DNA of 60,113 nucleotides from Candidatus Gastranaerophilales bacterium (GTDB taxonomy: Bacteria; Cyanobacteriota; Vampirovibrionia; Gastranaerophilales; Gastranaerophilaceae), in NCBI GenBank assembly GCA_944322705.1, contig CALUPR010000001.1, positions 1-60,113 on the forward strand, written 5' to 3'. Numbering within the stretch: the first letter of the stretch is position 1; every line of letters starts with the position of its first letter. Positions 911 through 44,011 of the stretch are shown piece after piece. The position numbers were made by a program, and so were the translations under genes. The notes under the pieces were generated by a model. That model was given only the letters and a program-made list of their open reading frames with translations. It was not told where the DNA came from and did not search any database.

Positions 911-979
911 ATATATAAAATATATAACTAATAAATAATTGCGTATTTTCAATAAACTAACTTTACAAAACTTAATAAA
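911..979 (-). promoter_or_regulatory. HLR1-like box plus bipartite promoter-like element
   Basis: Minus strand TATTAAGTTTTGTAAA-N18-CGCAA-N17-ATTTTATATA; similar copies at 8934, 22745, 28523, 38011, 43946. Confidence 0.55.
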
Positions 980-985
980 TATAAG

Positions 986-3364
986 TTATATATCAAGACT
1001 CCCGAAGATATTGGTTGATGTAATCTCTTTGAGCGAGGGGCAGTTATCTATATTATGTGTTTTCACAAAATCTATGGCTTCGTTTCTTGCAAGTTCAAGA
1101 ATTTTTGCATCTCTTACTATATCTGATATAATCAAATCCGGCAGTCCGCTTTGACGTGTTCCCAAAAATTCCCCCGGTCCGCGAAGCTGCAAATCTTTTT
1201 CAGCTATTACAAATCCGTCATTAGTTTGCGCCATTATGCCCAGTCTTTCACGTGTTTCCTGCGACTTTGACGCTGTATACAAAATGCAGTAAGACTGCAA
1301 ATCACTTCTCCCCACTCTTCCTCTGAGCTGGTGAAGCTGGGAAAGTCCGAAACGTTCCGCATTTTCAATAAGCATGACTGTCGCATTAGGAACATCAACA
1401 CCTACTTCAACTACAGTTGTAGAAACAAGTATATCGTATTTTTTATTTTTAAAATCTGACATAACCTGTTCTTTTTCTTCATTTTTTAATTTTCCGTGCA
1501 GCAGCCCTATTTTGAATTGAGGGAAAATTTCTTTTTTAAGTTTTTCAGCTTCTATTGTGGCAGCTTTTGCTGAAAGGGTTTCGCTCTCTTCAATTAGCGG
1601 ATATACAACATACGCCTGTCTGCCCTGTTCAATTTCATGCTGTATGAGTTCATACACCCCTCTGTGCGATGTTACAAGAGAAGTTTTTATCGGCTTTCTG
1701 CCTTTAGGAAGTTCATCAATTACCGTAAGGTCCAAATCTCCGTGTACAGTCAAAGCAAGAGTCCTTGGAATGGGGGTTGCGGTCATTGTAAGCATTTGCG
1801 GGTTTTGTGATTTTTTCTTTAATACATTTCTTTGTTTTACGCCGAATCTGTGCTGCTCATCAACAACAATTGCTCCCAGATTATTGAAATCTACACCTTC
1901 TTGAATAAGAGCATGTGTGCCGACTGCGATATTCATTTGACCGTTTTTTAAATCAGTACGGAATTTTTCTCGGATTCTTTTCCCCTGACTGCCTAAAAAC
2001 AGTCCGACACTTAATCCCATCGGGGTAAACCAATTTATTAGATTATTGTAATGCTGTTGAGCCAGAATTTCAGTCGGAGCCATTATTGCACCCTGATAAC
2101 CGTTTTCTACTGCCGCTAAAAGCATAATTGCCGCAACAACGGTTTTGCCGCTGCCTACATCACCTTGTAACAATCTTGCCATTGGTATATCAGAATTAAG
2201 GTCGTTTAAAATCTCATTTACGGCTTTTTTTTGTCCGCCTGTAAGTTCAAACGGCAAACTGTCAATAAATTTTCTCACAAGTCCGTCTTTTTTTATTTTT
2301 AAGGCAATTGCGTTATGGTGATGAGAATTTTCTTCCCTTATTCTTGCAAGTTTCAGCTGTATTATAAAAAGTTCTTCAAAAATAAGTGAAAATCTTGCCT
2401 GTTCAAGAAGCTCCATGCTCTCAGGAAAATGTATCTGCTCAACAGCTGTTTTTTTGTCTAAAATTCCGTATTTTTCTCTGATAAAGTCAGGAACAACATT
2501 CTCAATTTCATCTTTATATGTCTGTATTGCGTTAAAAATTGCCCGTCTTAGAACTTTAATGCTTAAATCCTCGCACACTGTGTAAATAGGAACAATTCGG
2601 GCAAGGTTCAGGTTTGAATTTTTATCCTCAATAAACTCTCCGGTCATAATAGAGTAATTGGGCTTATCAAAAGTTAATTTATTGTCATAATTATTACGCT
2701 TAACTTTACCTGAAATCATTATTCCGGCGTTTTTCGGGAACTGAGATTTAATTCTTTCAAGCATAAATTGATTTGATTTTGCCTGAAAAAAGCCAAGTTC
2801 AAGCTTGCCGCTCTCATCGGCAACAACAACTTTTACAACTGACAGATTATTTCTTGTATTGAATGCGGAAACAGATGTAATATATCCGAAAACAGTTGTG
2901 GTTTCTCCTTCTTTCAGATTTTTAATGAGCGTCCTTGAAGAGTAATCAATATGTTTTTTAGGAAAATACAGCATTAAATCTTTTGCAGTAAAAATTCCTA
3001 ATTTGTTCAGTTTATAAGCAATTTTCGGTCCGACACCTTTTATGTACATTACATCCGTATCAGATGCTGGCTTTTTATGAGTGTTTTCTTTATTTACAGA
3101 AGTATTTGATGATGTTTCGGATTTTAAAACCTTTATGAGTCTGTCTATGCTTTTTCTTCGTTCATTTATTCCGGCAAAAGGATAATGCTCAAATATTTCA
3201 ACAATCAGTGACCATTTCGGATTTTTTTTTGAAAGTTTATAATATTTTTTTGCCTCATTTTTTATAAAAGAGGAAAAAGCCTGCTTTTTGCCGTGAATAT
3301 CAATATATTTGTACTGAATTTCAATTTCTATTGCTTTTTTCAGCTGTTCGATATTTTCAATCAC
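986..3364 (-). CDS. recG: ATP-dependent DNA helicase RecG
   Basis: LLQGDVGSGKT, DEQHRFG, TATPIPRT, QLRGRVGR, wedge domain. Confidence 0.97.
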   Translation of the reverse strand: MIENIEQLKKAIEIEIQYKYIDIHGKKQAFSSFIKNEAKKYYKLSKKNPKWSLIVEIFEHYPFAGINERRKSIDRLIKVLKSETSSNTSVNKENTHKKPASDTDVMYIKGVGPKIAYKLNKLGIFTAKDLMLYFPKKHIDYSSRTLIKNLKEGETTTVFGYITSVSAFNTRNNLSVVKVVVADESGKLELGFFQAKSNQFMLERIKSQFPKNAGIMISGKVKRNNYDNKLTFDKPNYSIMTGEFIEDKNSNLNLARIVPIYTVCEDLSIKVLRRAIFNAIQTYKDEIENVVPDFIREKYGILDKKTAVEQIHFPESMELLEQARFSLIFEELFIIQLKLARIREENSHHHNAIALKIKKDGLVRKFIDSLPFELTGGQKKAVNEILNDLNSDIPMARLLQGDVGSGKTVVAAIMLLAAVENGYQGAIMAPTEILAQQHYNNLINWFTPMGLSVGLFLGSQGKRIREKFRTDLKNGQMNIAVGTHALIQEGVDFNNLGAIVVDEQHRFGVKQRNVLKKKSQNPQMLTMTATPIPRTLALTVHGDLDLTVIDELPKGRKPIKTSLVTSHRGVYELIQHEIEQGRQAYVVYPLIEESETLSAKAATIEAEKLKKEIFPQFKIGLLHGKLKNEEKEQVMSDFKNKKYDILVSTTVVEVGVDVPNATVMLIENAERFGLSQLHQLRGRVGRSDLQSYCILYTASKSQETRERLGIMAQTNDGFVIAEKDLQLRGPGEFLGTRQSGLPDLIISDIVRDAKILELARNEAIDFVKTHNIDNCPSLKEITSTNIFGSLDI

Positions 3365-5312: not shown

Positions 5313-5360
5313 TAATTCCTTTATTTTATGATATAATAAATTTCGGAAAAAGGATAGATT

Positions 5361-5969: not shown

Positions 5970-5971
5970 TT

Positions 5972-6916: not shown

Positions 6917-7919
6917 AGCTGTTATATCGGGTTATTACGGATTTAAAAATTTTGGGGATGAAACTATACTTTCTGTTTTAATTAAACATTTAAAAAATTT
7001 AAATGCTGATATTACTGTTTTTTCGTCGGATCCTAATTTTACCGAAAAAACATACGGAATAAATTCAATAAAAAGTTTTGATATGATAAAAGTTATTTGT
7101 ACTCTTAGAAATACCGATGTTCTTATATCAGGCGGGGGAAGTTTATTGCAGGATGCTACAAGTCTTAAAAGTCTTATTTATTACTTATCAGTTATAGCAC
7201 TTGCACTTTTTTTTAATAAAAAGGTAATAATATTTGCGCAGGGCATTGGTCCTGTAAACAATAAATTTGCCCGTTTAATTCTCATAAATTTACTTAAATT
7301 ATGTTCACTTGTTACGGTACGTGATGAAGCAAGTCTTAATTTCTTAAATAAATACGGTGTCAGTGCTAAACTTGTCTGTGATCCTGTTTATTCTTTGGAG
7401 GTAAATCAGACATCCGCAAAAAATATAGCAGGGGTTCAGTTAAGAGAGTTTAAAACTATGAATTATGCACTGCTTCAAAAGCTGGCTTTATTTATAAAAG
7501 AAAAATTTGGAAACTGCAAAATAGAAATATTTTCACTTCAAGAAAATTTAGATTTAGCTCTGTGTAAAAAATTTGAGGATTTATTGCATTCTATAGCTCC
7601 TGATATCCGCACAGAAATAGTAACTGAAGATATAATTAACCGTATAGCTAATCTTGAATATATGATTGGTATGCGGTTTCATGCCCTGCTAACAGCGATA
7701 AAATGCGGAGTAAAGACCTGTGCAATAAATTACGATATAAAAGTTGAAAGACTTGCAAAAGATGCTTCTATTCCCATGATTTCAATGGATGCCCATGAAA
7801 ATTTTGAAGAAATTTATTCAAGAATGCAAAATCTCAAAAGAGATGAACTTTTGAGATTTGCTGATAATAAATCTTTTGATTGGTCAGATTTTGATAAATT
7901 ATTTATCTTTACCGAATAG
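6909..7919 (+). CDS. csaB: Polysaccharide pyruvyl transferase CsaB
   Basis: Start reassigned to ATG 6909 (MVKAVISGYYGFKNFGDE); SGGGSLLQD, GMRFHA. Confidence 0.9.
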   Translation: MVKAVISGYYGFKNFGDETILSVLIKHLKNLNADITVFSSDPNFTEKTYGINSIKSFDMIKVICTLRNTDVLISGGGSLLQDATSLKSLIYYLSVIALALFFNKKVIIFAQGIGPVNNKFARLILINLLKLCSLVTVRDEASLNFLNKYGVSAKLVCDPVYSLEVNQTSAKNIAGVQLREFKTMNYALLQKLALFIKEKFGNCKIEIFSLQENLDLALCKKFEDLLHSIAPDIRTEIVTEDIINRIANLEYMIGMRFHALLTAIKCGVKTCAINYDIKVERLAKDASIPMISMDAHENFEEIYSRMQNLKRDELLRFADNKSFDWSDFDKLFIFTE

Positions 7920-8906
7920 TCTGTTGTAATTTTTAATTAATGTCTGCGAGAATGTCGGTTTTGTCGGATCTACCAATAACTCAGCTTGTTTTTTAAAGGC
8001 ATTTGAGTCAATTTTTCCGTCCACAATTCCATTATCATCTGTGTCATATGTTGCTATAGTTGCGGCTAATTCCTTCCAATCAACTTTTTTATCCTGATTT
8101 AAATCCATTCTTGAAAAGGCATAAGAAGCCCCTAATCTTATATTTTGCTTCTGTTCTTCTGTAGCATCATCAGGTAATTTTGATAATTCGTATTTTATGT
8201 ATTCTTCCATAGTTAATTCCTGGTCACTATTACCTGATGTCTTGTCAATATGTGCAGCGTAAGATTTTGCTATATCTGAAATATCTTTTTTATACTGTTC
8301 CGAGTCAGTTCCTGTTGCAGTAGTAAGTTTTATTTCTTTACCTTCAACAGCATTATTGTCTTTGTCAATCATTTCGTCCAGGTCACTATCAAATCTTTCG
8401 CCTTTTTCGGTACTTTGAGAAGCATCCCACTTGCCTGCATATTCATTGTTCTGTTTACTTAAACCTGCAATAGTCCCGTTTGATTGCATTAATTCCGGAT
8501 ACTGAGCTTTAAGTTGTTCCATGTACATCTTGCCATACTCATAAGGATCCATGCCGCCTGTTAAACTCATAACCCCGTTATTCATAATCCCAGTCATAGG
8601 AGAAATACCTGTACCCATCAATCCGGTATATGAATTCGGCATGCCCATAAAGCCACCCATACCATACAAGCTGCCGCCAAGTAAATTCATACCTATAGGA
8701 TAATTAAGTCCTGCACCCCACATCCCGTTGAATATGCTTGGACCACCGCAGCAACTGCTCTTATTCATATCATGAATCATTGCACCTGTTAAGCCTGTAT
8801 TTAATGTGAACATTCCTGTTGCGGCTATTCCTTTTTGGAGATTGCCGTTATTCCATCCTGTTTTGAAGGCGTTGCCTACATTATTCATGAAAGAACTAAA
8901 GCTCAT
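7899..8906 (-). CDS. Hypothetical EF-hand protein with Gly/Met-rich N-terminus
   Basis: DLNQDKKVDWKE EF-hand loop plus degenerate loops; GAGG RBS; no signal peptide. Confidence 0.75.
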   Translation of the reverse strand: MSFSSFMNNVGNAFKTGWNNGNLQKGIAATGMFTLNTGLTGAMIHDMNKSSCCGGPSIFNGMWGAGLNYPIGMNLLGGSLYGMGGFMGMPNSYTGLMGTGISPMTGIMNNGVMSLTGGMDPYEYGKMYMEQLKAQYPELMQSNGTIAGLSKQNNEYAGKWDASQSTEKGERFDSDLDEMIDKDNNAVEGKEIKLTTATGTDSEQYKKDISDIAKSYAAHIDKTSGNSDQELTMEEYIKYELSKLPDDATEEQKQNIRLGASYAFSRMDLNQDKKVDWKELAATIATYDTDDNGIVDGKIDSNAFKKQAELLVDPTKPTFSQTLIKNYNRLFGKDK

Positions 8907-8933
8907 AGTTATCCTCGTATTTATATATTTTAT

Positions 8934-9000
8934 ATATATAAAGTATTGATTTTATTAAAAATTGCTTATTTTATTAAAGTTGTTTACATTACTTAATAAA
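8934..9000 (-). promoter_or_regulatory. HLR1-like box plus bipartite promoter-like element
   Basis: Minus strand TATTAAGTAATGTAAA-N16-AGCAA-N17-ACTTTATATA. Confidence 0.6.
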
Positions 9001-9028: not shown

Positions 9029-9032
9029 AAAT

Positions 9033-9118
9033 TGCCCTGGGCCAGACTTGAACTGGCACTGGATTTAACTCCAACCGGATTTTAAGTCCGACGCGTCTAC
9101 CGATTCCGCCACCAGGGC
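9033..9118 (-). tRNA. tRNA-Leu(UAA), intronless, CCA not encoded
   Basis: GCCCTGG acceptor stem, GGAATCGGTAGAC D-loop, CT-TAA-AA anticodon loop, long variable arm, GTTCAAGTC T-loop. Confidence 0.97.
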
Positions 9119-9205
9119 ATATTAAATTTTAAATTTAAAATCCTGCTTTTGTGCTTAGTGACAAGATTTAGAGCAAATTTATATTAACCTAAACATTATA
9201 TCATG

Positions 9206-10417
9206 TCAAGAATTTTGTTTCAAAGGATATTTGCTAATATATTTTGACAAATCATTAACTTTTGTTTTTAGGTTATTGTTAATTCTTGTAAGTTCTGCTT
9301 TGACAAGAGTTTGATTAGACAGTTTTACTGCGCCGAACAGCGGAGGATGTTTAATATTTTGTAAGAATAAATTTTTAAATGCCTTTATTTCATTGTAATC
9401 ATTTTCATCTATTATGGGATAAAGTTCAGAAAGTTCAATAAATAAATCACCAAGTTCTATTTTGGCTTTAACTATTTTTTGAGCGGATATGTATTTTGAA
9501 ATTTTTTGAGTATAACAAAGAATTTTTTCATAGTTTATTTTTATTTTTGATTTTTTACAGGTCAAAAATTTTGTAAAATATTCCATAGTTTGCTGATACC
9601 CTGACTCAATAAGTTCATTTCTTTTCGCTTCATTCATATTAAAGTCGACTATGACGATATCTCCGGTATTAAGTACAACATAATCATATTTGTCGTTATC
9701 AGCATAAAGACTTGTTATAAATGATGTTGACATTGCAGTCATGCAGCTATAAACAGCATTAGCGTAATCTATACCCGAGATGTTATTTTTGTCATAATCA
9801 CCTTCAAGTCTGAATTCTAAAATTCTTTCACCTGTATTAAAAAGATTTTTTGAAAGTTTCCACATAGGAAAACTTTTTTGAAGGTCACCGTCGACAAGAA
9901 GTGTGTTGTTGTATTCTATGGGTTTCATAAGACCGGGCATACAGGATGAAATACGTATTGCAGAAGCTATTTCAAAATCAGGTGTTTCAAATCTCGAAAA
10001 TTCTTTACATTCAAAATTTGAAAGGTTAGTTGTAATAACGATGAGATTTTTTTCTATGTCTTTGAATGTGACTGCTTTATTTTTACCTTTTTTATAATTA
10101 TCACCGTAAAATTTTGATTCAATAAGATCGCGTACCCATTCAAGAAAAACTTCTCCTTTGCTTATAGCAAAAAGCGGACCGATGCCGATTGATATATCTT
10201 TAAAAAGTTCAAAATTAACTTTTATAAATATTTGTTTTAGCTCTTCAGCGCTGTAACCGACTGCCAGAAGTGCGGCTATGATTGAACCTACAGAGGAGCC
10301 TCCAAAAGTATCCGCCTGAACACCCAGTTCTTCCATCGCTTTTATGGCTCCGATATAAGAAACACCGCGTATTGCACCGCCTCCAAATAGGCATGTATAT
10401 TTCAAATTATTATCCAT
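9206..10417 (-). CDS. Patatin-like phospholipase
   Basis: GGGAIRG, GSSVG nucleophile, DGD in place of DGG. Confidence 0.88.
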   Translation of the reverse strand: MDNNLKYTCLFGGGAIRGVSYIGAIKAMEELGVQADTFGGSSVGSIIAALLAVGYSAEELKQIFIKVNFELFKDISIGIGPLFAISKGEVFLEWVRDLIESKFYGDNYKKGKNKAVTFKDIEKNLIVITTNLSNFECKEFSRFETPDFEIASAIRISSCMPGLMKPIEYNNTLLVDGDLQKSFPMWKLSKNLFNTGERILEFRLEGDYDKNNISGIDYANAVYSCMTAMSTSFITSLYADNDKYDYVVLNTGDIVIVDFNMNEAKRNELIESGYQQTMEYFTKFLTCKKSKIKINYEKILCYTQKISKYISAQKIVKAKIELGDLFIELSELYPIIDENDYNEIKAFKNLFLQNIKHPPLFGAVKLSNQTLVKAELTRINNNLKTKVNDLSKYISKYPLKQNS

Positions 10418-10432
10418 ATTTTAATTATACTG

Positions 10433-11941
10433 TTATTTAAAATTTATACCTGTAGTAAATAGTGTATTTTTATAATAGTTTAAATCATCAGTCGGTTGTA
10501 TAAATTTTTTATTTGCTTTTTCTTCCGGCAAAAATACCCCGAAAGATTTGTCCTCATAGACAAGTTTCCAGCCGCCTTCTTTTTGTAAAACATTATATAT
10601 CGGATAATATTTTTCAATAATTATTATATCAGGCGGGAAGTAGGTTAAAATTTCTCTCCAGTGAGGGTATGCAAGGCAAAATTCTTTCAACATGGGCACC
10701 ATATAGTCAAAATATACTTCTTCATATCTTCCGTCCATAAATATGCGGTTATTCGGGTATAATTTATATGCAGTGTAGCTGCCAACACCGAAATTAGTCA
10801 GGATATTGCCTTTCAGGTTATTTTGTTTAATGAATTCTATTTCTTTAACGGGATATACTCCTATCCCGACAGGAACTGAAAAATCTTTGGACAGAAGCGT
10901 AAAAAGTGAAATAAACAGAAGCATGGCATATACAGCCTTGTCTTTCCACTGGGAGAATTTATAATTTTCAATTAGCCTGTAAAAATCTTCATAGACAAAA
11001 CACAGCGCTGATATCGCAAAGAAAGGAATAAGTTTTACATGGCTGATTGCAAGATAAAGTGTTGCAAGAAGAACGATATATTTAACCTTATCTGCTTTTT
11101 TATACCAATTTTTAATTCCTTCAAGTTTAATTTTATCAAATAAATCAATACTTTCTATAATAATTATAGCTGTCATAAACAGTTTAAATATAATGTGTTT
11201 AAACAAATGAAATTTGGAAAATATTCCCCACCATTCAACAATGTGTGTTCTTTCCATGGTATTAGCCATTAAAAGGAATTTAATATATTCATATCCCCAG
11301 GGATTTATGATTAGAGCTGCCGAAGAAAATAGAAAGGTAACAAGGTATTTTGCAAATTCTTTCTTATTAAGGAATTCTCCGAGAGCATACATTAAAAGCA
11401 GTCCTATACCTGATACAACGCCGCCGTGTATGTTGTTCCAAAAAATCACAATAAATGGTACCAAAAACAGCAGTTTGTTATCGCCCTTGCGTACTTTTTC
11501 AAGAAGGTAAATAAATACTGTGAACAGTAAAAAACTAAACATGTGGCATCTTACGGGATGATTAAGTGTTCCCATTAGCGCCATGACAGTAAAAAAGTAA
11601 AATAAAATATTGTAAGGAGAAACGTTAGTTCTTAATTTAATCACTTTTGATGCCGTAAAAAATATCAAAAACATCAGAACAGCCTGCAGAATTATGAGGC
11701 TGTACGGACCGCAGAACTTCAAAAATAAATAAAATATAACGCCGGCACCCCATTCATGATCCCACCACGTATGTACGGGAGTGTATGAGAGAAAATCTGT
11801 TTTTAAAACCTGTCCTCCGTCTACAACTCCCATGCCTGCAATAAGTCTTGCCCATAAATCAAAGTCAAAATAATTTGCGGCAGTAGAAAATGCAAGAATA
11901 AGTAAAAATAGTGTTAAATAAAATAATATCCCCTTTTTCAT
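10433..11941 (-). CDS. Polytopic membrane protein, possibly GT-C-fold glycosyltransferase
   Basis: ~11 TM segments; DLW, HEW, NIHGG, FMDGR motifs. Confidence 0.6.
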   Translation of the reverse strand: MKKGILFYLTLFLLILAFSTAANYFDFDLWARLIAGMGVVDGGQVLKTDFLSYTPVHTWWDHEWGAGVIFYLFLKFCGPYSLIILQAVLMFLIFFTASKVIKLRTNVSPYNILFYFFTVMALMGTLNHPVRCHMFSFLLFTVFIYLLEKVRKGDNKLLFLVPFIVIFWNNIHGGVVSGIGLLLMYALGEFLNKKEFAKYLVTFLFSSAALIINPWGYEYIKFLLMANTMERTHIVEWWGIFSKFHLFKHIIFKLFMTAIIIIESIDLFDKIKLEGIKNWYKKADKVKYIVLLATLYLAISHVKLIPFFAISALCFVYEDFYRLIENYKFSQWKDKAVYAMLLFISLFTLLSKDFSVPVGIGVYPVKEIEFIKQNNLKGNILTNFGVGSYTAYKLYPNNRIFMDGRYEEVYFDYMVPMLKEFCLAYPHWREILTYFPPDIIIIEKYYPIYNVLQKEGGWKLVYEDKSFGVFLPEEKANKKFIQPTDDLNYYKNTLFTTGINFK

Positions 11942-12500: not shown

Positions 12501-14711
12501 TTAGCTGTAAATTTTGAATGTTCTTTCAATGTTTTTATCAATTGCTGTTTTAATTGAATCATATTCCGTTTGTAATGAATTATGTTCTGTATCTATATTT
12601 TTTAATTCAAGATCGAATTTTTTATCTTTGTTTTCAATTTTGTTCATAGCTGCGTTATATTCAGCCTCGGCAATTGCAACAGCCTGATCATTTGTTTGTT
12701 CTGTGATATCACTGCAGTTTGAATAATTAAGTCCGTTCCAGTTACCGTCTTTGTCGACCTGTTCCATAGTTACAAGTCCGTTTTCAAGTGCAAATTGAAT
12801 CCATTCGTTGCTTGATGCAAGTCCGTCCTGTAAAACCTTAAATCCGTTTTGCATACGTGCGAAAAGATTTGCATACCAGTTATATTTTGCTTCACCGTTT
12901 TCGTTGTATGAATCAGTTGGACTGCTTGTATCAATCCATGTAACATTTGGTTCGCCATATGTGTTCATAATGTTATTTAAAGCTATCACATCAAGCAAAT
13001 CCTGTAATGCATCTTTATCGACCGAAAGTGTAGTATTACCATCAGCTAGTTTAACGCCATCATTAAGAACTTTATCTAAATAAGTTGGATCTGTAGCAAT
13101 CTTATTTATTTCGGAAAGTTCAATTGTGTAGGTATTTCCATCTTTGCCGGTTATTTGTACTTTTTGGTATTCGTCTGGTTCAGTTGCATTTGTAGCTGTG
13201 ACGGGAGTTCCACCAAGCAAATGTGCAATGAATGCAGCAGCAGCATTTCTGTAAGCTAAATGCGCATCTGTTTCTGTAGTTGTCCCATCTTCATCTTCAC
13301 TTATAAATTCTGTGTTGTTTACGTCCCACAAATTGTAAATGCTTGTTGCAAGACTATTTATAATGGATGTTACCGTAGCTTTAATACTATCGCTGTCAAT
13401 AGGGTTCGTTTCCGTTATCTCAATTTTTGTGTTTTCGTCATTTTTTGATTTTGCTGCTTCCCTAAATAAAGCATCCAAGCCGCCGTCCCCGAAACTAAAT
13501 GTGTTATTTCCATCAGCATCTTGAGCTAATGTCCCATCTTCATTTACACTATAGCTTATTTTTGTAATGGATCCTGATAAATTGCTGCCAATGTTGCTCC
13601 AGCTGCTATTTTCAGCTTCATTCATTGCTTCTATAGAGTAACCATTCTCATCTTTTACAATCCTTAAAGTATCATTTATAGTTAATGTCTGTTTCCCTCC
13701 TGATTCAGTAAACACTATGTCACCCGCATCAGGATCATCACTATAAACCACTGTACCGCCGATGTTCTCGGTGCTTGTACCTTCTTCCATGCCTTTAACT
13801 TCATCAATATAAGTTTGAAGATAGGCACGTTCCTGAGAGTTTTCTTCTGTGCCCGGACAATATTTTTTAGCTGTCGTTAATATTTCTCTTAAAGCTTCTA
13901 GATAAGATGTATAGTCCGAATTACTAGCTGTGTCGCTGAATGTATTATTAAAGTATTCAGATATATCACCCAAATTTTTTTCATTATATACAAGTGAGTT
14001 TAATTTCTCTGTCATCTTATCAGCTATAGTACTTGCATAAGCTGTATATGCAGCATCAAATTTTTCTGCATAACCTACATAGTCATTATAGACAGATGAT
14101 GACAATGCAGCTTCATAGCCGCTATGACCGTTTCCGCCAAAAAACATGTCTTTTAATTCATCAATTGTGTAACCGGAACCGACATAGGTTGTATTGCCAT
14201 TCTCATCTGTTCCCAAGATTGGAACCTCTATTACGTTACCATCATTATCTCTTTTAGTCTTGTCATTCGGCCAGATATCATTTCCGTCCTCATCTGTATA
14301 TGTTGTATTTAAATATTTTTCTAATTGATCAAAGTATGTTGTTGTCTGCTCCAATCCATAAGCTTTAAGGAATTTATCCATATCTCCGTCAGCATTTATA
14401 AAGTTAGTTGCATCTCGTTCTGATACAAGTATCTGACCTGATGCATTAACAAGACCGTACTGGTTGTTATAAGGGTTGTATGAAGTTAATGAATTAAACG
14501 TCAATTGCTGATAGCTTGCGTTATTATCAGCATCGTAATTTGTAAACATCATTTGAGCCTGGTTCAATGCATTAATGTATGCTTCGCTTACCTGCGAACT
14601 TTCTGTTGCAAGACGCATCTTCTGATTGTTGATAATCTGAGCTCTTAACTCGTTATCAGACATACGAGAAGTTATTGATAATAATCTAGCTTGTCCTGCC
14701 GCCATTCCCAT
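12501..14711 (-). CDS. Hypothetical 736-aa protein: helical N- and C-termini around a D/N/T/G-rich core (flagellin-like architecture)
   Basis: N-term MGMAAGQARLLSITSR..., C-term heptad ...DTEHNSLQTEYDSIK...FKIYS; AAGGA RBS; no signal peptide. Confidence 0.85.
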   Translation of the reverse strand: MGMAAGQARLLSITSRMSDNELRAQIINNQKMRLATESSQVSEAYINALNQAQMMFTNYDADNNASYQQLTFNSLTSYNPYNNQYGLVNASGQILVSERDATNFINADGDMDKFLKAYGLEQTTTYFDQLEKYLNTTYTDEDGNDIWPNDKTKRDNDGNVIEVPILGTDENGNTTYVGSGYTIDELKDMFFGGNGHSGYEAALSSSVYNDYVGYAEKFDAAYTAYASTIADKMTEKLNSLVYNEKNLGDISEYFNNTFSDTASNSDYTSYLEALREILTTAKKYCPGTEENSQERAYLQTYIDEVKGMEEGTSTENIGGTVVYSDDPDAGDIVFTESGGKQTLTINDTLRIVKDENGYSIEAMNEAENSSWSNIGSNLSGSITKISYSVNEDGTLAQDADGNNTFSFGDGGLDALFREAAKSKNDENTKIEITETNPIDSDSIKATVTSIINSLATSIYNLWDVNNTEFISEDEDGTTTETDAHLAYRNAAAAFIAHLLGGTPVTATNATEPDEYQKVQITGKDGNTYTIELSEINKIATDPTYLDKVLNDGVKLADGNTTLSVDKDALQDLLDVIALNNIMNTYGEPNVTWIDTSSPTDSYNENGEAKYNWYANLFARMQNGFKVLQDGLASSNEWIQFALENGLVTMEQVDKDGNWNGLNYSNCSDITEQTNDQAVAIAEAEYNAAMNKIENKDKKFDLELKNIDTEHNSLQTEYDSIKTAIDKNIERTFKIYS

Positions 14712-14758: not shown

Positions 14759-14822
14759 TTATCGGATTATTTGAATAAAAACTTTAATAATTAAATAATT
14801 TTTTGTTACAAATCGTAATAAT
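14759..14822 (-). promoter_or_regulatory. Sigma28 (FliA/SigD)-type promoter with upstream HLR1-like box
   Basis: Minus strand TAAAGTTT...TCCGATAA (TAAA-N16-TCCGATAA, 14786-14759); box GTTACAAA-TC-GTAATAAT at 14805-14822. Confidence 0.7.
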
Positions 14823-21450: not shown

Positions 21451-22332
21451 ATGAAAAAAATCTTTAATGATTTCTCTAACAGTGAAAAATTCGCCGGCTG
21501 GGTATTTATATTCCCTGCATTAATCGGAACATTTATATTTATAATTATTCCGGTAATATGTTCTTTCGGGTTAAGTTTTACGAATTGGGATTTGTTAAAT
21601 CCTATACAATTTGTAGGTTTTGAAAATTATAGAAATTTATTTGCAGAACCTTTGTTTTATAAGATACTTGTTAATACTATTGTATTTGCTCTTTCTACTT
21701 CAATTTTAGGTGTAATAATCCCTTTAGTGTTAGCTTGCATATTAAACTCCAAAATAATGGGAAGTGAATTTTATAAAACCGCGTATTTTTTGCCGTTCAT
21801 AACCCCAATGATTGTTATCGGAATTGTGTGGGAATGGATTTTTGACCCAAATATCGGAATTTTAAATCATGTTTTGAATCTTCATATTAACTGGCTATAT
21901 GATACGCATTTTGCAATGCCTGCATTGATTATTGTTTCTGTCTGGAAGCTTATCGGATACAATATGATAATATTTTTAAGCTCATTAAGTTCAATTTCGC
22001 AAAGTATGTTTGAGGCTGCAAAAATTGACGGTGCTAACCCAATACAGATATTTATTAATGTTACGGTGCCGCTGTTATCTCCAAGCATATTTTTTGTGGT
22101 TATTATAACTGCAATAAGTTCTTTCCAGATATTTGATTTAATATATTTAATGACTCAAGGCGGTCCTTTAGACAGCACAAATGTTTTAGTTTACGCAATA
22201 TATAAAAATGCTTTTGAATACTTTAACGTAGGCAAAGCATCAGCTATTGCCTACGTTTTGTTTGTAGTTATTCTTTTATTGACAGTGATTCAGTGGTCAT
22301 TGCGCAAAAAAATTGTTTATAATGAAAACTAA
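21451..22332 (+). CDS. Carbohydrate ABC transporter permease (orphan)
   Basis: EAAKIDGA EAA loop, 6 TMs, TQGGP; start approximate. Confidence 0.92.
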   Translation: MKKIFNDFSNSEKFAGWVFIFPALIGTFIFIIIPVICSFGLSFTNWDLLNPIQFVGFENYRNLFAEPLFYKILVNTIVFALSTSILGVIIPLVLACILNSKIMGSEFYKTAYFLPFITPMIVIGIVWEWIFDPNIGILNHVLNLHINWLYDTHFAMPALIIVSVWKLIGYNMIIFLSSLSSISQSMFEAAKIDGANPIQIFINVTVPLLSPSIFFVVIITAISSFQIFDLIYLMTQGGPLDSTNVLVYAIYKNAFEYFNVGKASAIAYVLFVVILLLTVIQWSLRKKIVYNEN

Positions 22333-22718
22333 ACGTTTATGTCAGTTGTATAGTTTTTCATAATGTCGGCGGCAGATATGCCTCGTTCTTTTACTTCTCC
22401 GCCAACAAGTTTTTTAAATTTACTTCCAAGTTCACCTAATTCTAAAATTCCATTAAAAGATGACTCTGCAGGTGAATTCACCGGCGAATTATAAACAGCT
22501 TTTCTGTTCATTGTAAAGTTAGAGTATACATTATTTTGGCTTGCTCCATGCATTATTAATATATCACCTTCATTTGCTTTTTTTATATTATTTAAAGCTG
22601 CATCAAGAGCCCGCAGTTGTTTGTTTTTTTCTGCAAATTCAACAACTTCTTTGAATGCTTTATTCGGAATAAATCTTGCCGTAAATGCCGGATGGTTACA
22701 CTTTTTCGAAATTTCCAT
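22329..22718 (-). CDS. Hypothetical protein
   Basis: 129-aa ORF with AGGAGG RBS. Confidence 0.75.
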   Translation of the reverse strand: MEISKKCNHPAFTARFIPNKAFKEVVEFAEKNKQLRALDAALNNIKKANEGDILIMHGASQNNVYSNFTMNRKAVYNSPVNSPAESSFNGILELGELGSKFKKLVGGEVKERGISAADIMKNYTTDINV

Positions 22719-22744: not shown

Positions 22745-22838
22745 ATTAAAAGTTTAAAAAAAAATTTTTTTGCTATTAGATAAATTTTTGTAACAATCTT
22801 TAGGATTATACTAAAGTTTCAAAATATTTTGCCGTCAA
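22745..22838. promoter_or_regulatory. Divergent control region: bipartite element (-) and sigma28-like promoter (+) sharing a TGTAAC box
   Basis: Minus: TGTTAC-N15-AGCAA-N16-ACTTT; plus: TAAA(22812)-N15-GCCGTCAA(22831-22838). Confidence 0.55.
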
Positions 22839-27981: not shown

Positions 27982-28491
27982 TTATGAACCCTGTCCGGTG
28001 TAGTCCGGAACCATATTCTTGGCACCGTCTTGTTCTTCTTTCTTCTTAGCTTCGTATTGACCTTTAGCAATTTCAAGACGTGATTCTAAATTATCTTTTT
28101 CAACTTCTAAATCTTCTTGAATAGCCTTTAACGGTTCAAGCATCATATCTCTCATCATATCAAATTGTTCAGCCATCATTGCTTGTTGATACATCATCTG
28201 CTGCTGTAAACCTTGAATACCATACGTATAAAGATTGTAAGCCTCCATAGAACCTGATTGAGCTCCTTGTTGTCCTGAGAGACCAAGCATCATACCGCTT
28301 CTTATCTGGTTGAAGGCAAACGTATTTTGCATATTAATCATGCGTTCCTGGCTCTGCAGGTTCTTTTCCATGTCACCAACTTGTTTGGTAACACGGTTCA
28401 GACGGCTTTGTACGCTTGTCAGTTGCCATTGAAGCTGTCTGACAAGTCGTCCGGCCATTAATTTACCATATGCGCCTGATAGGAAACCCAT
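27982..28491 (-). CDS. Hypothetical Gln/Met-rich helical-hairpin protein, apparent short paralogue of 12501..14711
   Basis: Ungapped N- and C-terminal similarity to the 736-aa protein; AAGGA RBS. Confidence 0.8.
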   Translation of the reverse strand: MGFLSGAYGKLMAGRLVRQLQWQLTSVQSRLNRVTKQVGDMEKNLQSQERMINMQNTFAFNQIRSGMMLGLSGQQGAQSGSMEAYNLYTYGIQGLQQQMMYQQAMMAEQFDMMRDMMLEPLKAIQEDLEVEKDNLESRLEIAKGQYEAKKKEEQDGAKNMVPDYTGQGS

Positions 28492-28522: not shown

Positions 28523-28587
28523 TATATAAAGTATATATTTATTTGATTATTGCTTATATATAAGAAATTTTTACATTTCGTAACATT
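28523..28587 (-). promoter_or_regulatory. HLR1-like box plus bipartite promoter-like element
   Basis: Minus strand TGTTACGAAATGTAAA-N15-AGCAA-N17-ACTTTATATA. Confidence 0.6.
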
Positions 28588-28615: not shown

Positions 28616-28644
28616 TTGCATGATTACAAATTTTTTGATAAAAT
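28616..28644 (+). promoter_or_regulatory. Sigma70-type promoter
   Basis: TTGCAT-N17-TAAAAT with extended TG. Confidence 0.55.
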
Positions 28645-28665
28645 TTGTAAAAAAGAGGAGTAATT

Positions 28666-38010: not shown

Positions 38011-38075
38011 TTTATGAAGTAATGTAACAAAGAAAAGCCATGCTGAAATACTTAAAAATAAAATTTGTTTATATA
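38011..38075 (+). promoter_or_regulatory. HLR1-like box plus bipartite promoter-like element
   Basis: TATGAAGTAATGTAAC-N15-TGAAA-N17-TGTTTATATA. Confidence 0.6.
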
Positions 38076-38107: not shown

Positions 38108-38479
38108 ATGAACGGTATTTTAGCAAAAACTTCGGAAAACAGAACTAATGATATTAAAAGTACAAAACCTGTAGAATCAATTGAAACAGCAGGCTCATTA
38201 GCAATGAACAATGTATTTCACAGTTTATTTGAAACAAATACTTATGATGAATTTTCAACAAATAATCCTTTTGCTGTGGATTATTCTCAGTACTCAGATT
38301 CAGGTGATACCGTAGCTTATTCAAGCTTTTTAAGCAGTTTTACAAATGCAATATCCACACTTTCAAATTCATCCGGATTTTCATCGACCGGAGGCGCTGT
38401 TTCCTGCGGAGGTTTTTCAGGAGGTGCATCAGCTGGCGGTTCATGCGGCGGAGGCGGTGGATTTTCATCAGTTTGCTAG
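38108..38479 (+). CDS. Hypothetical protein with Gly/Ser/Cys-rich C-terminus
   Basis: AGGAG RBS; ends ...SCGGFSGGASAGGSCGGGGGFSSVC; own hairpin terminator near 38518-38545. Confidence 0.75.
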   Translation: MNGILAKTSENRTNDIKSTKPVESIETAGSLAMNNVFHSLFETNTYDEFSTNNPFAVDYSQYSDSGDTVAYSSFLSSFTNAISTLSNSSGFSSTGGAVSCGGFSGGASAGGSCGGGGGFSSVC

Positions 38480-38558
38480 GTTATTAAAAGGTGATAAAGA
38501 AAAAGAAATACTATAAATGGCGGTACCCAAAACCGCCTTTTTTATTTATTAAATAAAT

Positions 38559-38810
38559 ATGACAAAAAAATATTTTACATATATATTATTAACAGAGCAT
38601 AACACATATTATTGCGGTTATACAGATAATATTGATAAACGTTTTAAAGAACATGTCAGCGGTAAGGGTGCTAAATATACTAAAGCTAATAAACCATTGA
38701 AAATCGTTTATACTAAAGAATTTAGCAGTAAATCCGACGCAATGAAAGAAGAATACAGAATAAAACATTTAACAAAAGAAGAGAAAATTCAGCTTATTAA
38801 TAATTATTAG
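38559..38810 (+). CDS. GIY-YIG nuclease family protein (YazA/YhbQ-like)
   Basis: FTYIL...YYCGYT, GKGAKYT, AMKEEYRIK. Confidence 0.9.
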   Translation: MTKKYFTYILLTEHNTYYCGYTDNIDKRFKEHVSGKGAKYTKANKPLKIVYTKEFSSKSDAMKEEYRIKHLTKEEKIQLINNY

Positions 38811-38850
38811 TATTATTCACATGAGTTTCAATCTGATTAACGTTTATATC

Positions 38851-40197: not shown

Positions 40198-40198
40198 A

Positions 40199-40873
40199 CT
40201 ATACTAAACCTTCCTTCATAGCCATGGAGATAGCTTTTGAACGAGAATTTACATAAAGTTTCTGCAAAATACTGTGAACGTGAGTTTTTGTTGTAGAAAT
40301 TGTAATAACAAGTTTTTCTGCAATTTGCGGGTTTGTAAGTCCGTCAACAATTAATGCTAAAACCTCCATTTCCCGTTCGGTAAGTCCGTATAAATTTTTA
40401 CCGAGTTTATAATTGATTTCACCGCGCTTTTCAGTATATTCACTGCCGCGTCTTATATTAGTCAAAACGACTTTTGCAATTGCCGGATCAAGCCAGCCCG
40501 CGCCCTCTGAAACTGCAGTAACAGCAGCAACAGTCTGCTCAGATGTTGCCCCTTTTGTAATATAACCGTCTGCTCCTGCCTGAAATGAATCAAAAATATC
40601 ATCTTCACTTTCTCGCGATGTATACATCAAAACTTTTACATCAGGATTAGCACACTTAATTCTTTTTGTTGCTTCAATACCATCTATTGTTGGAAGACCT
40701 ATATCCATTATAACAACATCAGGTCTAACCTGAAGAGTCTTTTCAACTCCGTCAAGACCGTCAGCACACATTCCGACAATCTCAATATTTTGATTATTAC
40801 TCAGTATAACCGAGAGCCCCATACGCGCCATATCGTGATCTTCTACAATCAAAACTTTGATATTTTTAGCCAT
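40199..40873 (-). CDS. NarL/LuxR-family response regulator
   Basis: VEDH, MDIGLP, ADGYITK, LTEREMEVL HTH; start at MAKNIK. Confidence 0.95.
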   Translation of the reverse strand: MAKNIKVLIVEDHDMARMGLSVILSNNQNIEIVGMCADGLDGVEKTLQVRPDVVIMDIGLPTIDGIEATKRIKCANPDVKVLMYTSRESEDDIFDSFQAGADGYITKGATSEQTVAAVTAVSEGAGWLDPAIAKVVLTNIRRGSEYTEKRGEINYKLGKNLYGLTEREMEVLALIVDGLTNPQIAEKLVITISTTKTHVHSILQKLYVNSRSKAISMAMKEGLV

Positions 40874-42470
40874 TGGAAACCTGTCTTTCTTTAACTTTAG
40901 CATCCGCTACCACATTTGTTAACAGGAAAGAAAATTCACTTCCTTTATTAATTTTACTATCTACCCAAATTTTGCCGTTATGAGCTTCTATAATTTGCCT
41001 TGAAAGATACAATCCAAGTCCGGTCCCAGTAGAACGTTTTCTTGTTGTGCCTTGAGAAAAGCGTTTAAACAAATTAGGGATATCAGATTGTGGTATGCCA
41101 TTACCGTTATCACTTACGGAGAATATAAAATCATTATTTTGTGCCTTTGCAAGAACTTTTATTTCTCCGCCTTTGTTGGTATAGTTAACTGCATTACCGC
41201 ACAGATTTGTAATAACACGCTTAATTTCTGCTCGATCGGCAAATATATGCAAATTATCTGACAATTCAAAAGTAACTGTAAACTTTAAATCTTTTTTATC
41301 AGCCAGCGGCTTCAATTCGGAATAGCACTGTTCTACAAGATCTTTAACAGGAAATGCTGTTTTGCAAAGAGATAATTTCCCGCTTTCAAATCTATAGACT
41401 TCCAAAAGTGCATTCACAAGCCCCAGTAAATCTTCATTACTCTGAAGCATTGTAGACAAAAGTATCTTTTGTTTTTCTTCAAGATTTCCAATAGCACCTT
41501 CAAGAAAAAATTTCAAAGTTTGTATGGCAGCAAGAAGAGGAGTTCTCATATCATGAGTTAATGTCGCAATAAAATCATCTCTTAATCTTTCTGTTTCTTT
41601 TTGTACGCTTACATCTCTTATTACGCCTACAAACTTATCAAAATTATTATCACTGTCATTTGAAATAGCGGCAAAACTTATTTCAACAGGGGTATGCTCT
41701 CCGCTTAAAAAATTAATTATATAGTAATCTCTGAGAAGAACTTCTGAATTATCAATACCTAAACCAAAAATCTCACCGGATTTATTTTCTGTAGAAGAAT
41801 TCAATTCTTTAACAGTTGAATATGCTATTTCCTGAAATTTTTTCTTGCAAAGAGAGTTTTCTGAAAGACCTACAAGGTTTTCGCAGGCGGGATTAACCTG
41901 TAAAATATTCCCTTCGCCATCTACAATTATTATTCCGTCAGCACAGTAGTTTATTATGCCCGAAAGCTTTTTATTTGCTTCGGACAAATCAGCAGTACGC
42001 TCAGCTACAATTTTTTCTAAATTTTGAGAATAGTCTTCAAGTTTTGAATTTGCGGCTTCAAGTTCATTAATTTTATTTTTGAGATTTTGAAGCAGATGAC
42101 TTCTTTCAATTCCGTTTTTTATATTCATTAACAAATCATCATTATCCCAGGGTTTTTCAATATATTTATAAAGTCCTATTTCATTAATAGCTTTTATCGC
42201 ATTTTCTTTATCAGCATAACCTGTTAGTAAAATCATGCTGACTTCAGGGTATAATTTTTTTGCTTCTGTTAAAAATTCAAGCCCGTTCATCTCCGGCATT
42301 ATAAAATCAGAAATAATTAAATCAGGGGTGTTTTCACTTAAAAATTTAATAGCATCTTTAGGGGAATTAAACAAATGTATATCAGAATAGCCCTCAACTT
42401 TGAACAGAGCTTTAAAAGCCGAGGTAACTATTTTTTCATCATCAACTACTACAATTTTGCCGTTATTCAT
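40866..42470 (-). CDS. Hybrid sensor histidine kinase (REC-PAS-HisKA-HATPase)
   Basis: VVDDE/ISDFIMP REC, PAS, THDMRTPL, NAVNY, GTGLGL. Confidence 0.94.
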   Translation of the reverse strand: MNNGKIVVVDDEKIVTSAFKALFKVEGYSDIHLFNSPKDAIKFLSENTPDLIISDFIMPEMNGLEFLTEAKKLYPEVSMILLTGYADKENAIKAINEIGLYKYIEKPWDNDDLLMNIKNGIERSHLLQNLKNKINELEAANSKLEDYSQNLEKIVAERTADLSEANKKLSGIINYCADGIIIVDGEGNILQVNPACENLVGLSENSLCKKKFQEIAYSTVKELNSSTENKSGEIFGLGIDNSEVLLRDYYIINFLSGEHTPVEISFAAISNDSDNNFDKFVGVIRDVSVQKETERLRDDFIATLTHDMRTPLLAAIQTLKFFLEGAIGNLEEKQKILLSTMLQSNEDLLGLVNALLEVYRFESGKLSLCKTAFPVKDLVEQCYSELKPLADKKDLKFTVTFELSDNLHIFADRAEIKRVITNLCGNAVNYTNKGGEIKVLAKAQNNDFIFSVSDNGNGIPQSDIPNLFKRFSQGTTRKRSTGTGLGLYLSRQIIEAHNGKIWVDSKINKGSEFSFLLTNVVADAKVKERQVSNG

Positions 42471-42530
42471 ACTTATATGATAAGCTATTTTTTAATTTCA
42501 GACAAATTGTTTACAAAATTGAAATAATTT

Positions 42531-42557
42531 AAAAAGCGGGAATTAGTTTCCCGCTTT
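42531..42557. terminator. Intrinsic terminator
   Basis: AAAAAGCGGGAA-ttagt-TTCCCGCTTT. Confidence 0.85.
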
Positions 42558-43068
42558 ACAACTTATAAGAATGAACTTTATATTCACGTTTCCCAAGTTC
42601 TTGATCAAGGTGATACAAAGATGCCTTTTCATCGCCGAACATCTTTAATTTTGTAATGATATCTCTAGCATTTGCTTCTTCTTCAACCTGTTCTGAAATA
42701 TACCAGTTTATAAAATGACGTGTTGCAAGGTCACATTCATCTTCACTTAACGAAGCAACACAATTTATGCTATCTGTTACAAATTTTTCATGTTCAAGAA
42801 TTTTTTCAAATACCTGAAGAGGATTATGAAAATCTCTTTGAGGCGCATCAATTTGTTCAAGCTTGACTGTTCCGTCACGTTCGATAATATAATCAAATAA
42901 AATCATACCATGGTCCATTTCTTCTTTAGCCTGAACTTTTGTCCAATTTGAAAAACCGGACAAACCTATCTCATCAAAATATGCAGACATTGCAAGATAA
43001 AGATAAGCTGAATAAAATTCCTTATTAATTTGTGAGTTTAAAATATCTTCTACTTTCTCGTTAATCAC
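42556..43068 (-). CDS. ftnA: Non-heme ferritin
   Basis: QINKEFYSAYLY, EEMDHG, HE, EQVEEE; GTG start behind GGGAGG. Confidence 0.93.
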   Translation of the reverse strand: MINEKVEDILNSQINKEFYSAYLYLAMSAYFDEIGLSGFSNWTKVQAKEEMDHGMILFDYIIERDGTVKLEQIDAPQRDFHNPLQVFEKILEHEKFVTDSINCVASLSEDECDLATRHFINWYISEQVEEEANARDIITKLKMFGDEKASLYHLDQELGKREYKVHSYKL

Positions 43069-43453
43069 TTTGTCCCTCCCACAGTCCGTGTAAATTACAA
43101 AATTCCCGCGCAAGAGTTTTACCTGATTTATTTTCTAAAAGCATTCTAGGCTCCTGACCGGGATACAAATATTCAAGTTGCACTTGTTTTTTATCTTCAG
43201 AAATTGTTTCTATAAACATAATATAATGTTCTTCTGTCATAGGATGTAAAACTTCTCCGACTCTGACTTCATAATTATTATTTTCGTTTTTAACAAAAAC
43301 AGGAATATGTTTTTCAAAAATAGCTTCTTCTCTATTTTGACCGCTGACTTTTTGCATCATCTGACCGCAGCATACAAGTTCACCGCCTCCAACCAAAATT
43401 ACTTCAACAAGATTACCGCAGATTTCACATCTGTATAAATCAAGTCTTTCCAT
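43061..43453 (-). CDS. Desulfoferrodoxin (superoxide reductase)
   Basis: CEICGN...CCG, EKHIP, HPMTEEHYI, CNLHGLW. Confidence 0.95.
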   Translation of the reverse strand: MERLDLYRCEICGNLVEVILVGGGELVCCGQMMQKVSGQNREEAIFEKHIPVFVKNENNNYEVRVGEVLHPMTEEHYIMFIETISEDKKQVQLEYLYPGQEPRMLLENKSGKTLAREFCNLHGLWEGQSD

Positions 43454-43564
43454 ATTTTCTCCTTTCACACACTATTATTAACGTGCTTATGTAAAAATTA
43501 ACATTCACCAAATGTCTATAAAATAAAGATGAAAATATTTAAATTTTGTGATAGGATATAATCA

Positions 43565-43819
43565 GCCGTGCTCCACGGGGAATTGCAATCCCTCGACCCG
43601 AAGTTTATGCGGGGTGCAGAGCCTGTTGTGAGGGTATAACGGTTAATTTTGATAAATTTGATATTGTTGACGTTTAGACTTATGGCGGCGTAAGCTGTCG
43701 AACCGTGTCAGGATGGAAACATAGCAGCACTAAGACAATACTTGCGGGTGTCATATTTTTAAAAAGAGATATCAGATTTAAAGATTTTTTCCGGTGTATT
43801 CGATAGACAGTGGCACGGT
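43565..43819 (+). ncRNA. ffs: Signal recognition particle RNA, large (Alu-domain) type
   Basis: Helix 8 GTGTCAGG-ATG-GAAA-CAT-AGCAGCAC near 43704-43730; helix 6 GGCGGC-GTAA-GCTGTC; 5' GCCGTGC pairs with 3' GCACGGT. Confidence 0.92.
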
Positions 43820-43824
43820 TTTAT

Positions 43825-43859
43825 AAAAAAAAGCCTCCTTTGAAAGGAGGTAATTTTTT
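43825..43859. terminator. Bidirectional terminator
   Basis: A8-GCCTCCTTT-G-AAAGGAGG-TAATTTTTT. Confidence 0.85.
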
Positions 43860-43945
43860 GTTTAGGAAGGTAGGAATAGGAATTTTAAGTCTCTCTCTTA
43901 TTTAAATACTCTCTTTTAATATCCTTGTGTTTATTTAATGTTCAT
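43825..43945 (-). ncRNA. Candidate sRNA with UCCU repeats
   Basis: Lies between a promoter-like motif copy (43946-44011) and the terminator; no real ORF. Confidence 0.4.
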
Positions 43946-44011
43946 ATATATAAAGTATATAATTATTATAGAATTTCAAACATTACCCGATTTGTTACAA
44001 AAATTAATACT
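43946..44011 (-). promoter_or_regulatory. HLR1-like box plus bipartite promoter-like element
   Basis: Minus strand TATTAATTTTTGTAAC-N15-TGAAA-N17-ACTTTATATA. Confidence 0.55.

Follow-up and report, generated by a model that had tools for sequence, protein, structure and literature searches.

The window analysed here, the whole 60,113-nucleotide stretch that forms positions 1 to 60,113 of contig CALUPR010000001.1 (C1) in a 1.58-Mb, 89% complete genome of a Candidatus Gastranaerophilales bacterium (GCA_944322705.1; G000), carries a series of 18-bp direct repeats that resemble HLR1, the site bound by the cyanobacterial regulator RpaB. An initial annotation, made from the letters alone, had placed six of these boxes and a weaker seventh upstream of unlinked orphan genes, and had proposed that an RpaB-like regulator controls a lineage-specific gene set in this non-photosynthetic relative of the cyanobacteria. 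All six boxes lie where it had put them and read as it had read them, and its interpretation is supported by the genome comparisons described below. We find that the repeat marks a genuine conserved HLR1-type regulon, and we assign a probability of roughly 0.8 to the reading that it is the predicted site of an RpaB orthologue which co-activates promoters of two alternative-sigma classes and thereby switches on lineage-specific genes. The lineage placement is in line with a phylum search that returned cyanobacteria and with a homologue, in a genome of the same class, that is labelled Vampirovibrionales. Genes were called by our own script (1651, of which 1595 remained after filtering), and starts and small genes are approximate for that reason.

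Within the window, the pattern KTTACAWWNNKTWAYAWW with one mismatch gave 13 matches compared to 3.85 ± 1.74 in 100 shuffles, none of which reached 13. Across the genome, whose intergenic DNA is 71% AT and makes up about 10% of the total, 13 of 13 perfect HLR1 copies and 44 of 47 degenerate copies were intergenic. The half-site pair KTTACAW-N3-KTWAYAW, which has a period of 10 bp, was found in 50 intergenic copies versus 1.67 in 100 dinucleotide shuffles, so that the recurrence seen in the window stands out from AT-matched DNA genome-wide; periods of 7-9 and 11-15 bp yielded 0-9 copies each, and strict copies of period 11 were slightly in excess (6 vs 0.2). Inverted-repeat arrangements of the half-sites were rejected, as they occurred in 0-3 copies per spacing and were not enriched, and tandem repeats dominated an unbiased dyad scan, in which the box did not reach the top 25. 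The iterated matrix, KTWACAWW-NN-KTWAYAWW (15.5 bits), agrees with the published HLR1 consensus KTTACAWW-N2-KTTACAWW (PMC13421787). This matrix identifies approximately 114 intergenic sites at a 10% false discovery rate, its 121 matches compare to a mean of 11 and a maximum of 26 for 200 column-permuted matrices, and at scores of 12 or higher it finds 131 intergenic and 23 coding matches.

The initial annotation had described -35-like elements at a fixed distance from the boxes. The elements are present at that spacing, and they belong to two alternative-sigma promoter classes, which it had missed, rather than to sigma70 promoters. Both core classes were first seen downstream of boxes and then trained on all 1063 promoter regions. 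Class A, G(C/A)AA(A/T)-N17-19-T(A/T)TATA, comprises 83 promoters, and class B, TAAAG-N14/16-GCCGAT, comprises 37 and is of the sigma28 type, for which the consensus is TAAA-N15/16-GCCGAT; a FliA/WhiG sigma factor encoded at C80:2746-3573 passes TIGR02479 (243.9, cut-off 189.6). Boxes are found at 32 of the 83 class A and 15 of the 37 class B promoters, versus 11-12% of other regions (odds ratios 4.9 and 4.8, respectively). Positional bias relative to the predicted core promoters is sharp: when forward sites were counted with a 3-bp offset for the near-palindromic half-site, the gap was 15-20 bp in 33 of 59 box-promoter pairs (binomial p 6e-20), 5-9 bp in six and 25-29 bp in a few, which places boxes about 6, 17 or 28 bp ahead of the -35 element, and gene-anchored regions gave 30 of 49 at the main gap and 7 of 49 at the short one. 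A sigma70 consensus used as a control was flat in this analysis, and we rejected a sigma70 reading of the -35-like element, for which TTG and TATAAT profiles downstream of the boxes lack a sharp peak at that spacing. A small TATAAT-like peak 29-30 bp downstream of the boxes may represent a third, extended -10 class. If transcription start sites lie at the usual distance from the predicted promoters, gaps of 5-9 and 15-20 bp would put box centres near -50 and -60, inside the activation window of -66 to -45 reported for RpaB in Synechocystis (PMC6525291, also PMC13421787).

In the window, gaps to the -35 box are 16-19 bp (19, 17, 18, 17, 16, 16 and 16), near the 15-18 bp claimed earlier. The first box (962..979, plus strand, score 19.0) is reverse to a predicted class A core promoter, GCAAT...TTTTATA (914..942, minus strand), at a gap of 19 bp; this promoter, presumed functional, precedes an open reading frame (ORF) at 1..882 (minus strand) of at least 294 amino acids that continues past the contig end and has no Pfam match. 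The box at 8983..9000 (plus strand, score 17.7, gap 17 bp) partners a predicted class A promoter at 8937..8965 (minus strand) ahead of ORF 7899..8906 (minus strand, 329-335 amino acids, no Pfam match). Next, the box at 14805..14822 (plus strand, score 19.0, gap 18 bp) lies upstream of a predicted core promoter, TAAAG...CCGAT (14761..14786, minus strand), which matches the sigma28 consensus and precedes ORF 12501..14711 (minus strand), a 736-amino acid member of a multi-copy family in which the N- and C-terminal helices are conserved and predicted to pair and the middle is variable. Predicted class A promoters also partner the box at 28570..28587 (plus strand, score 20.9, gap 16 bp; promoter 28525..28553, minus strand), ahead of the 169-amino acid ORF 27982..28491 (minus strand, no Pfam match), and, in a GAAAT variant, both the box at 38011..38028 (minus strand, score 14.9, gap 16 bp; promoter 38045..38073, plus strand), ahead of the 123-amino acid ORF 38108..38479 (plus strand, no Pfam match), and the box at 43994..44011 (plus strand, score 8.4, gap 16 bp; promoter 43949..43977, minus strand). 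The weak copy exists, at 22777..22794 on the minus strand (score 7.4) instead of the 22779-22807 given earlier, and is flanked by two divergent promoters: a sigma28-type one (22812..22836, plus strand, gap 17 bp) before a 46-49-amino acid ORF (22858/22867-23007), and a class A one (22745..22773, minus strand, forward gap 3 bp) before ORF 22329-22718 (129 amino acids, no Pfam match). The 43994 and 22777 boxes thus fall below the genome-trained threshold of 12, and the former is conserved within the genus, being kept in 18 of 18 aligned copies despite its low score. The single orientation described earlier holds for the window, where all seven boxes are reverse to the core promoter, and does not hold genome-wide, where phased pairs comprise 23 reverse and 16 forward cases, partly because half-sites such as TGTTAACA are near-palindromic.

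The genome holds three OmpR-family proteins, one of which (C22:1408-2157) passes the RpaB equivalog NF045944 with 362 bits (cut-off 330), compared to 207 and 212 for the other two. Its recognition helix and wing match those in eight photosynthetic genomes, its DNA-binding domain is 76-79% identical to theirs, and a 23-row tree, midpoint-rooted and with paralogues on long branches, groups it with the RpaB of photosystem-bearing genomes; an RpaB match is present in 49 of 50 family genomes. The second protein, C21:21102-21797, is RpaA (PDB 9dvt, E 2e-83), which was found in 30 of 30 genomes searched, and the third is C35:8753-9466. A kinase encoded at C82:3970-5781 appears NblS-like from its HAMP-PAS-HisKA-HATPase domain order and from NblS being its best family, so that of the rpaB and nblS orthologues sought after the initial annotation the first is present and the second has a candidate below the family cut-off. 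We found no match to PsaA/PsaB or Photo_RC in this 89% complete genome and none to Photo_RC in seven near-complete family genomes; Photo_RC is matched in 8 of 8 presumed photosynthetic genomes. Di Rienzi et al. 2013 (PMC3787301) reported that RpaB, RpaA and NblS persist in these bacteria despite the absence of photosynthesis, which implies another role, two other studies report the same homologues and leave their function open (PMC4040986, PMC5877343), and NblS of Melainabacteria has been placed at the root of the NblS family (bioRxiv 2025.01.21.633742). No description of RpaB sites or targets in these bacteria was found in the open literature searched.

Boxes are retained across related genomes, which in these counts are kin rather than independent samples. 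The gene at 27982-28491 is present in 16 of 18 family genomes and in 0 of 72 other genomes of the class, and 19 of 19 copies (the one in this genome included, 24-100% protein identity; 2 of 21 loci, a duplicate and a broken copy, were omitted) keep a box scoring 15.8-21.5, which in 18 of the 19 directly precedes a class A promoter, with varying spacer letters. Most copies of the 12501-14711 family are preceded by a sigma28 promoter with an equally spaced box, whose score ranges from 4 to 20; near the short copies of distant families a box is mostly lacking. Strict sites number 16-34 in 12 family genomes, where the reversed pattern gives 1-14 and a 12-bp period 0-6. Elsewhere, they number 8-21 in family f33, 21 in f30, 9 in f38, 2-10 in f36 and 0-1 in f2, f31, f32, f34, f35 and f37. 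No RpaB match was obtained in any of the eight genomes searched from f32, f34 and f37, which together hold one strict site; this lack of a match runs against the view that all orders keep the regulator. Around 58 strict sites in genomes of four distant families, 11 of 13 nearby class A promoters were phased, and sigma28 phasing was not seen near these sites. Photosynthetic genomes yield strings near-identical to the strict pattern, one of them (G150) 146 bp 5' of a photosystem II reaction-centre gene.

The genes with a phased box and promoter are predominantly lineage-specific, as the initial annotation had proposed: 43 of 48 have no Pfam match, and the family-confined 27982-28491 is among the boxed genes. 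The five matches at E 1e-4 were to HD, PRK, SLT, RHH and MgtE_N, compared to 34 matches in 50 control genes at the stricter E 1e-8 (p 3e-9); out of 131 eligible genes 70 had been drawn as controls, of which the first 52 were used, and counting the two that were scanned elsewhere without a match gives 34/52. Since a gene counted as a target if it had both box and promoter, this scarcity may reflect alternative-sigma regulons as much as the box. A hydrophobic N-terminal stretch occurs in 2 of 47 targets versus 253 of 1442, suggesting that targets are mostly not Sec-exported, and the fraction of asparagine, serine, glutamine and threonine (N/S/Q/T) is 0.31 vs 0.21 in residues 2-26 and is also raised over whole target proteins (0.26 vs 0.20). 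Boxed genes include those for an HD protein, a kinase and a CopG-like protein, besides a few enzymes. The earlier statement that no full copy precedes housekeeping genes does not extend genome-wide, where some boxes adjoin housekeeping-looking genes (e.g. C27:425, C74:325 and C37:14037). One group-2-like sigma gene also has a box upstream, as does rpaA in 10 of 12 family genomes; the rpaA box was not seen in 13 other class genomes, nor within 250 nt in five photosynthetic genomes with the AT-tuned matrix, for which reason we do not claim that it is ancestral.

Most window boxes do lie upstream of orphan genes, and the promoter of the 43994 box drives a probable non-coding small RNA of approximately 110 nt (43825..43937, minus strand, ends approximate) in place of a protein gene. 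The unit consists of the box, the class A promoter, about 110 nt that contain no ORF and have conserved blocks, and a terminator hairpin with a U run and paired changes of stem letters. The candidate aligns in 18 genus copies with frame-breaking indels, is often unlinked from the neighbouring signal recognition particle (SRP) RNA at 43566-43818, with which it shares a two-way terminator, and folds as a whole sequence no better than shuffles (z -0.7), so that the terminator alone is supported as structure. An alternative assignment of this box to ORF 44072-44335 was rejected, as that side has no class A or B promoter and the promoter points the opposite way. A CU-rich block in the candidate might base-pair with TAGGA repeats or with sequences of the Shine-Dalgarno type.

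TAGGA repeats themselves occur in a reused cassette that is found on contigs C13 (two copies), C14, C36, C55, C62, C64, C74 and C89 of this genome. In it, a box is followed by some 40 bp that may contain an extended -10, then by three to six copies of the repeat and often by a class A promoter. The number of repeats varies, so the cassette may undergo phase variation or be bound by a second protein.

The genome further encodes two divergent FliA-like sigma proteins (C39:4200-4862 and C40:4938-5555; L076, L117) that the Sigma70_r2 profile missed. One of the divergent genes lies directly 3' of flhB, and such copies number two in f1, f30, f33, f36 and f38 and one in f2, f32, f34 and f37. These two proteins are candidates for the class A sigma.

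In the mechanism that we propose, a phosphorylated RpaB dimer would bind head to tail at the box, with its centre near -60 or -50 and on one face of the helix, and its phosphorylation would be set by the NblS-like kinase. Bound RpaB would then recruit RNA polymerase carrying the FliA/WhiG sigma at class B promoters and polymerase with another sigma, for which C39:4200 and C40:4938 are the candidates, at class A promoters. In a weaker step, some of the products, chiefly the sigma28-driven hairpin proteins related to 12501-14711, may be exported through a flagellin-free FlhA system.

For this system, the genome encodes FliE, F, G, H and I, a FliM/N protein, FliO, P, Q and R, FlhA and FlhB, a FliK-like protein and one FlgE/F/G-domain protein; no match to flagellin or to Flg_bb_rod/Flg_bbr_C was found in this genome. 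The loci, which seem to make up a complete export apparatus of the flagellar type, are at C32:1304-7485, C23:411-4063, C39:3096-4169 and 9031-11192, and C7:11235-12581 (L074, L075, L076, L094, L109). All 29 family genomes examined have FlhA and none has a flagellin match, and 15 of 15 flagellin-bearing genomes have two FlhA proteins. A tree of 18 FlhA sequences, built by a quick method with no outgroup, sets the flagellar proteins apart from a second clade that holds the copy of this genome (SH-aLRT 100); the FlhA score of this copy is 702 and its SctV score 585, each under the cut-off. The partial gene set has been interpreted as loss of flagella (PMC3787301, PMC4040986); the coexistence of this separate clade with flagellar FlhA in flagellated relatives argues that the second system is not simply a decaying flagellum. 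In G151 and G209, the second export operon has a box 80 and 118 bp 5' of its first gene, respectively; G200 has one ahead of a fliP gene, and G151 another ahead of a gene for a hairpin protein of 109 amino acids. As a separate observation, Flagellin_N matches are very numerous in G163 (34) and G151 (20).

The hairpin family has approximately seven copies here and, among 53 genomes, is present only in f1, f30, f33, f36 and f38. The structural model of the 736-amino acid protein (pLDDT 87) pairs N- and C-terminal helices around a variable middle, and the minimal 109-amino acid form is 77-87% identical among the 118 listed hits besides its own two. ORF 12501-14711 has no Pfam flagellin match. Foldseek placed a flagellar filament at rank 2 for the model, a weak match (E 0.005, TM 0.12), and VIA-align returned generic coiled-coil matches alone, with Z up to 11.8 over about 110 residues; the missing fold match does not demonstrate a new fold. 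The modelled layout of the family resembles that of a polymerising subunit exported by a type III system. The initial annotation had taken the targets to be probably exported, for which the grounds are circumstantial; that part of the regulon is exported through the flagellin-free FlhA system would be a reasonable extension of the main reading. We also advance, tentatively and with odds well short of even, a bolder version in which, in this non-photosynthetic branch, NblS-RpaB would act as master switch for a second type III export system, flagellum-derived and not yet described, licensing sigma28 and a divergent FliA-like sigma for a hairpin-protein filament and dozens of exported proteins.

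Several observations weigh against RpaB as the co-activator acting at these boxes. Other OmpR-family proteins read similar 10-bp repeats. Just 37 of the 131 intergenic matches are phased to class A or B, and the class A seed, first seen downstream of boxes, is for that reason not independent of them, even with training on all 1063 regions. The best family of the kinase, NblS, is reached at 340 bits versus a cut-off of 1000, and the export genes of this genome lack a box (best score 8.6). Strict sites are close to zero in some lineages in which RpaB is present (two in five genomes of f2, none in six of f31, and f35 too), the other non-photosynthetic class has RpaB with 0-5 strict sites per genome, and the six photosynthetic genomes vary widely, from 0 to 19.

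Among the alternatives that we weighed, the one that survives best is that RpaB binds the boxes but mainly represses, or that its targets are intracellular, with developmental or stress roles, and unrelated to export. It is in keeping with the unboxed export genes, with N/S/Q/T richness that spans whole target proteins and not just their N-termini, with a fold search that yielded generic coiled coils alone, and with targets that include the HD protein, the kinase, the CopG-like protein, the small RNA, rpaA and the sigma gene. We nonetheless regard it as doubtful, given that phased boxes lie wholly upstream of the -35 box, an activating position in cyanobacteria (PMC6525291), and that in G151 and G209 the second export operon has a box ahead of its first gene, as a fliP gene does in G200. 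Binding by another regulator, most plausibly the RpaA orthologue or the C35 OmpR protein, alone or in competition with RpaB, is improbable. Both are OmpR-family members encoded in the same genome, RpaA is present in all 30 genomes searched, and RpaA and RpaB compete at some Synechococcus promoters (PMC13421787); but their DNA-binding domains are 38% (RpaA) and 32% (C35) identical to that of the RpaB orthologue and their recognition helix differs, the motif equals the published RpaB consensus (PMC13421787), the RpaB site at kaiBC differs from that of RpaA (PMC12916501), and families that lack RpaB also lack boxes. An even smaller likelihood attaches to the box being an AT-rich UP-like or bending element that RNA polymerase itself reads with no transcription factor: the box is indeed AT-rich, phased to the -35 box and found before both promoter classes, but its two-half-site pattern is specific (15.5 bits, with conserved C and G/T positions), approximately 60% of the promoters in the two classes lack a box that reaches score 12, many boxes are far from such promoters, and the box occurs at three helical spacings and in both orientations. 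Chance matches in intergenic DNA that is 71% AT, where about 10% of score-12 matrix matches are expected to be false, may account for individual weak boxes but are refuted for strong sites by a thirty-fold enrichment at a single period, by phasing and by conservation across genomes.

RpaB co-activation at these boxes would most closely parallel the HLR1/RpaB-NblS/Hik33 (Rre26/Ycf27) system of Synechocystis PCC 6803 and Synechococcus PCC 7942, whose 18-bp direct repeat and recognition helix are the same as here. The cyanobacterial regulon covers more than 150 promoters, compared to about 100-130 sites here, and is likewise reported to take in targets of the kinds rpaA, sigma gene and small RNA. 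By contrast, this genome has no photosystem genes, its targets are lineage-specific and Pfam-less, its phased promoters are of the sigma28 type and of a second non-sigma70 class, the third and second-half positions of the box are more relaxed (KTWACA, KTWAYA) and the kinase lies below the NblS cut-off. The late flagellar regulon of sigma28 offers a second parallel: class B fits TAAA-N15-GCCGAT, a FliA/WhiG sigma is present, and one of the families transcribed from class B promoters has multiple copies and, as in flagellins, helical ends that are conserved around a middle that varies, yet flagellin is matched in 0 of 29 family genomes. Activator sites of the OmpR type are not known to occur upstream of sigma28 promoters in E. 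coli or Bacillus. Truncated flagellar basal bodies are used or have been proposed as export machines in Buchnera and, with FlhA/FliF/FliI, in Chlamydia; the genome studied here likewise keeps export gate, ATPase, MS-ring and C-ring genes without filament genes, and differs in that a separate FlhA clade exists beside the flagellar one in flagellated relatives.

Were the master-switch version true, the RpaB-HLR1 pair would predate oxygenic photosynthesis and would have been recruited to photosystem genes later. The role of RpaB without photosynthesis, left open since Di Rienzi et al. 2013 (PMC3787301), is made testable with a single recombinant protein by the site list, promoter geometry and target set given here, which also bear on the origin of the main photosynthesis regulator of cyanobacteria and red-lineage plastids. 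The data also point to an OmpR-type activator working with sigma28-type promoters and, within an uncultured group, highlight a second export system that is conserved and a family of hairpin proteins with multiple copies.

Two further boxes in the window had been missed by the initial annotation: one at 28634..28651 (minus strand, score 14.8) lies 14 bp 5' of the start of an AI-2E transporter gene, and a possible one at 56524..56541 (minus strand, score 12.8) is separated by 7 bp from a class A-like promoter (56549..56577, plus strand) that precedes ORF 56611-57627. Among neighbouring features, a tRNA-Leu(TAA) at 9032-9119 (minus strand) ends 32 bp from the 8983 box, and the 453-amino acid protein encoded at 49505-50866 (plus strand) consists of six Clp_N repeats, in which an ATPase domain was not found. 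Finally, 57596-60062 (minus strand) holds a gene of the receiver-plus-ParA type and, after it, an ATPase-like gene that lacks a Pfam match, a pair that we take to be similar to CpaE/CpaF of Tad pili, with a possibly degenerate ATPase.

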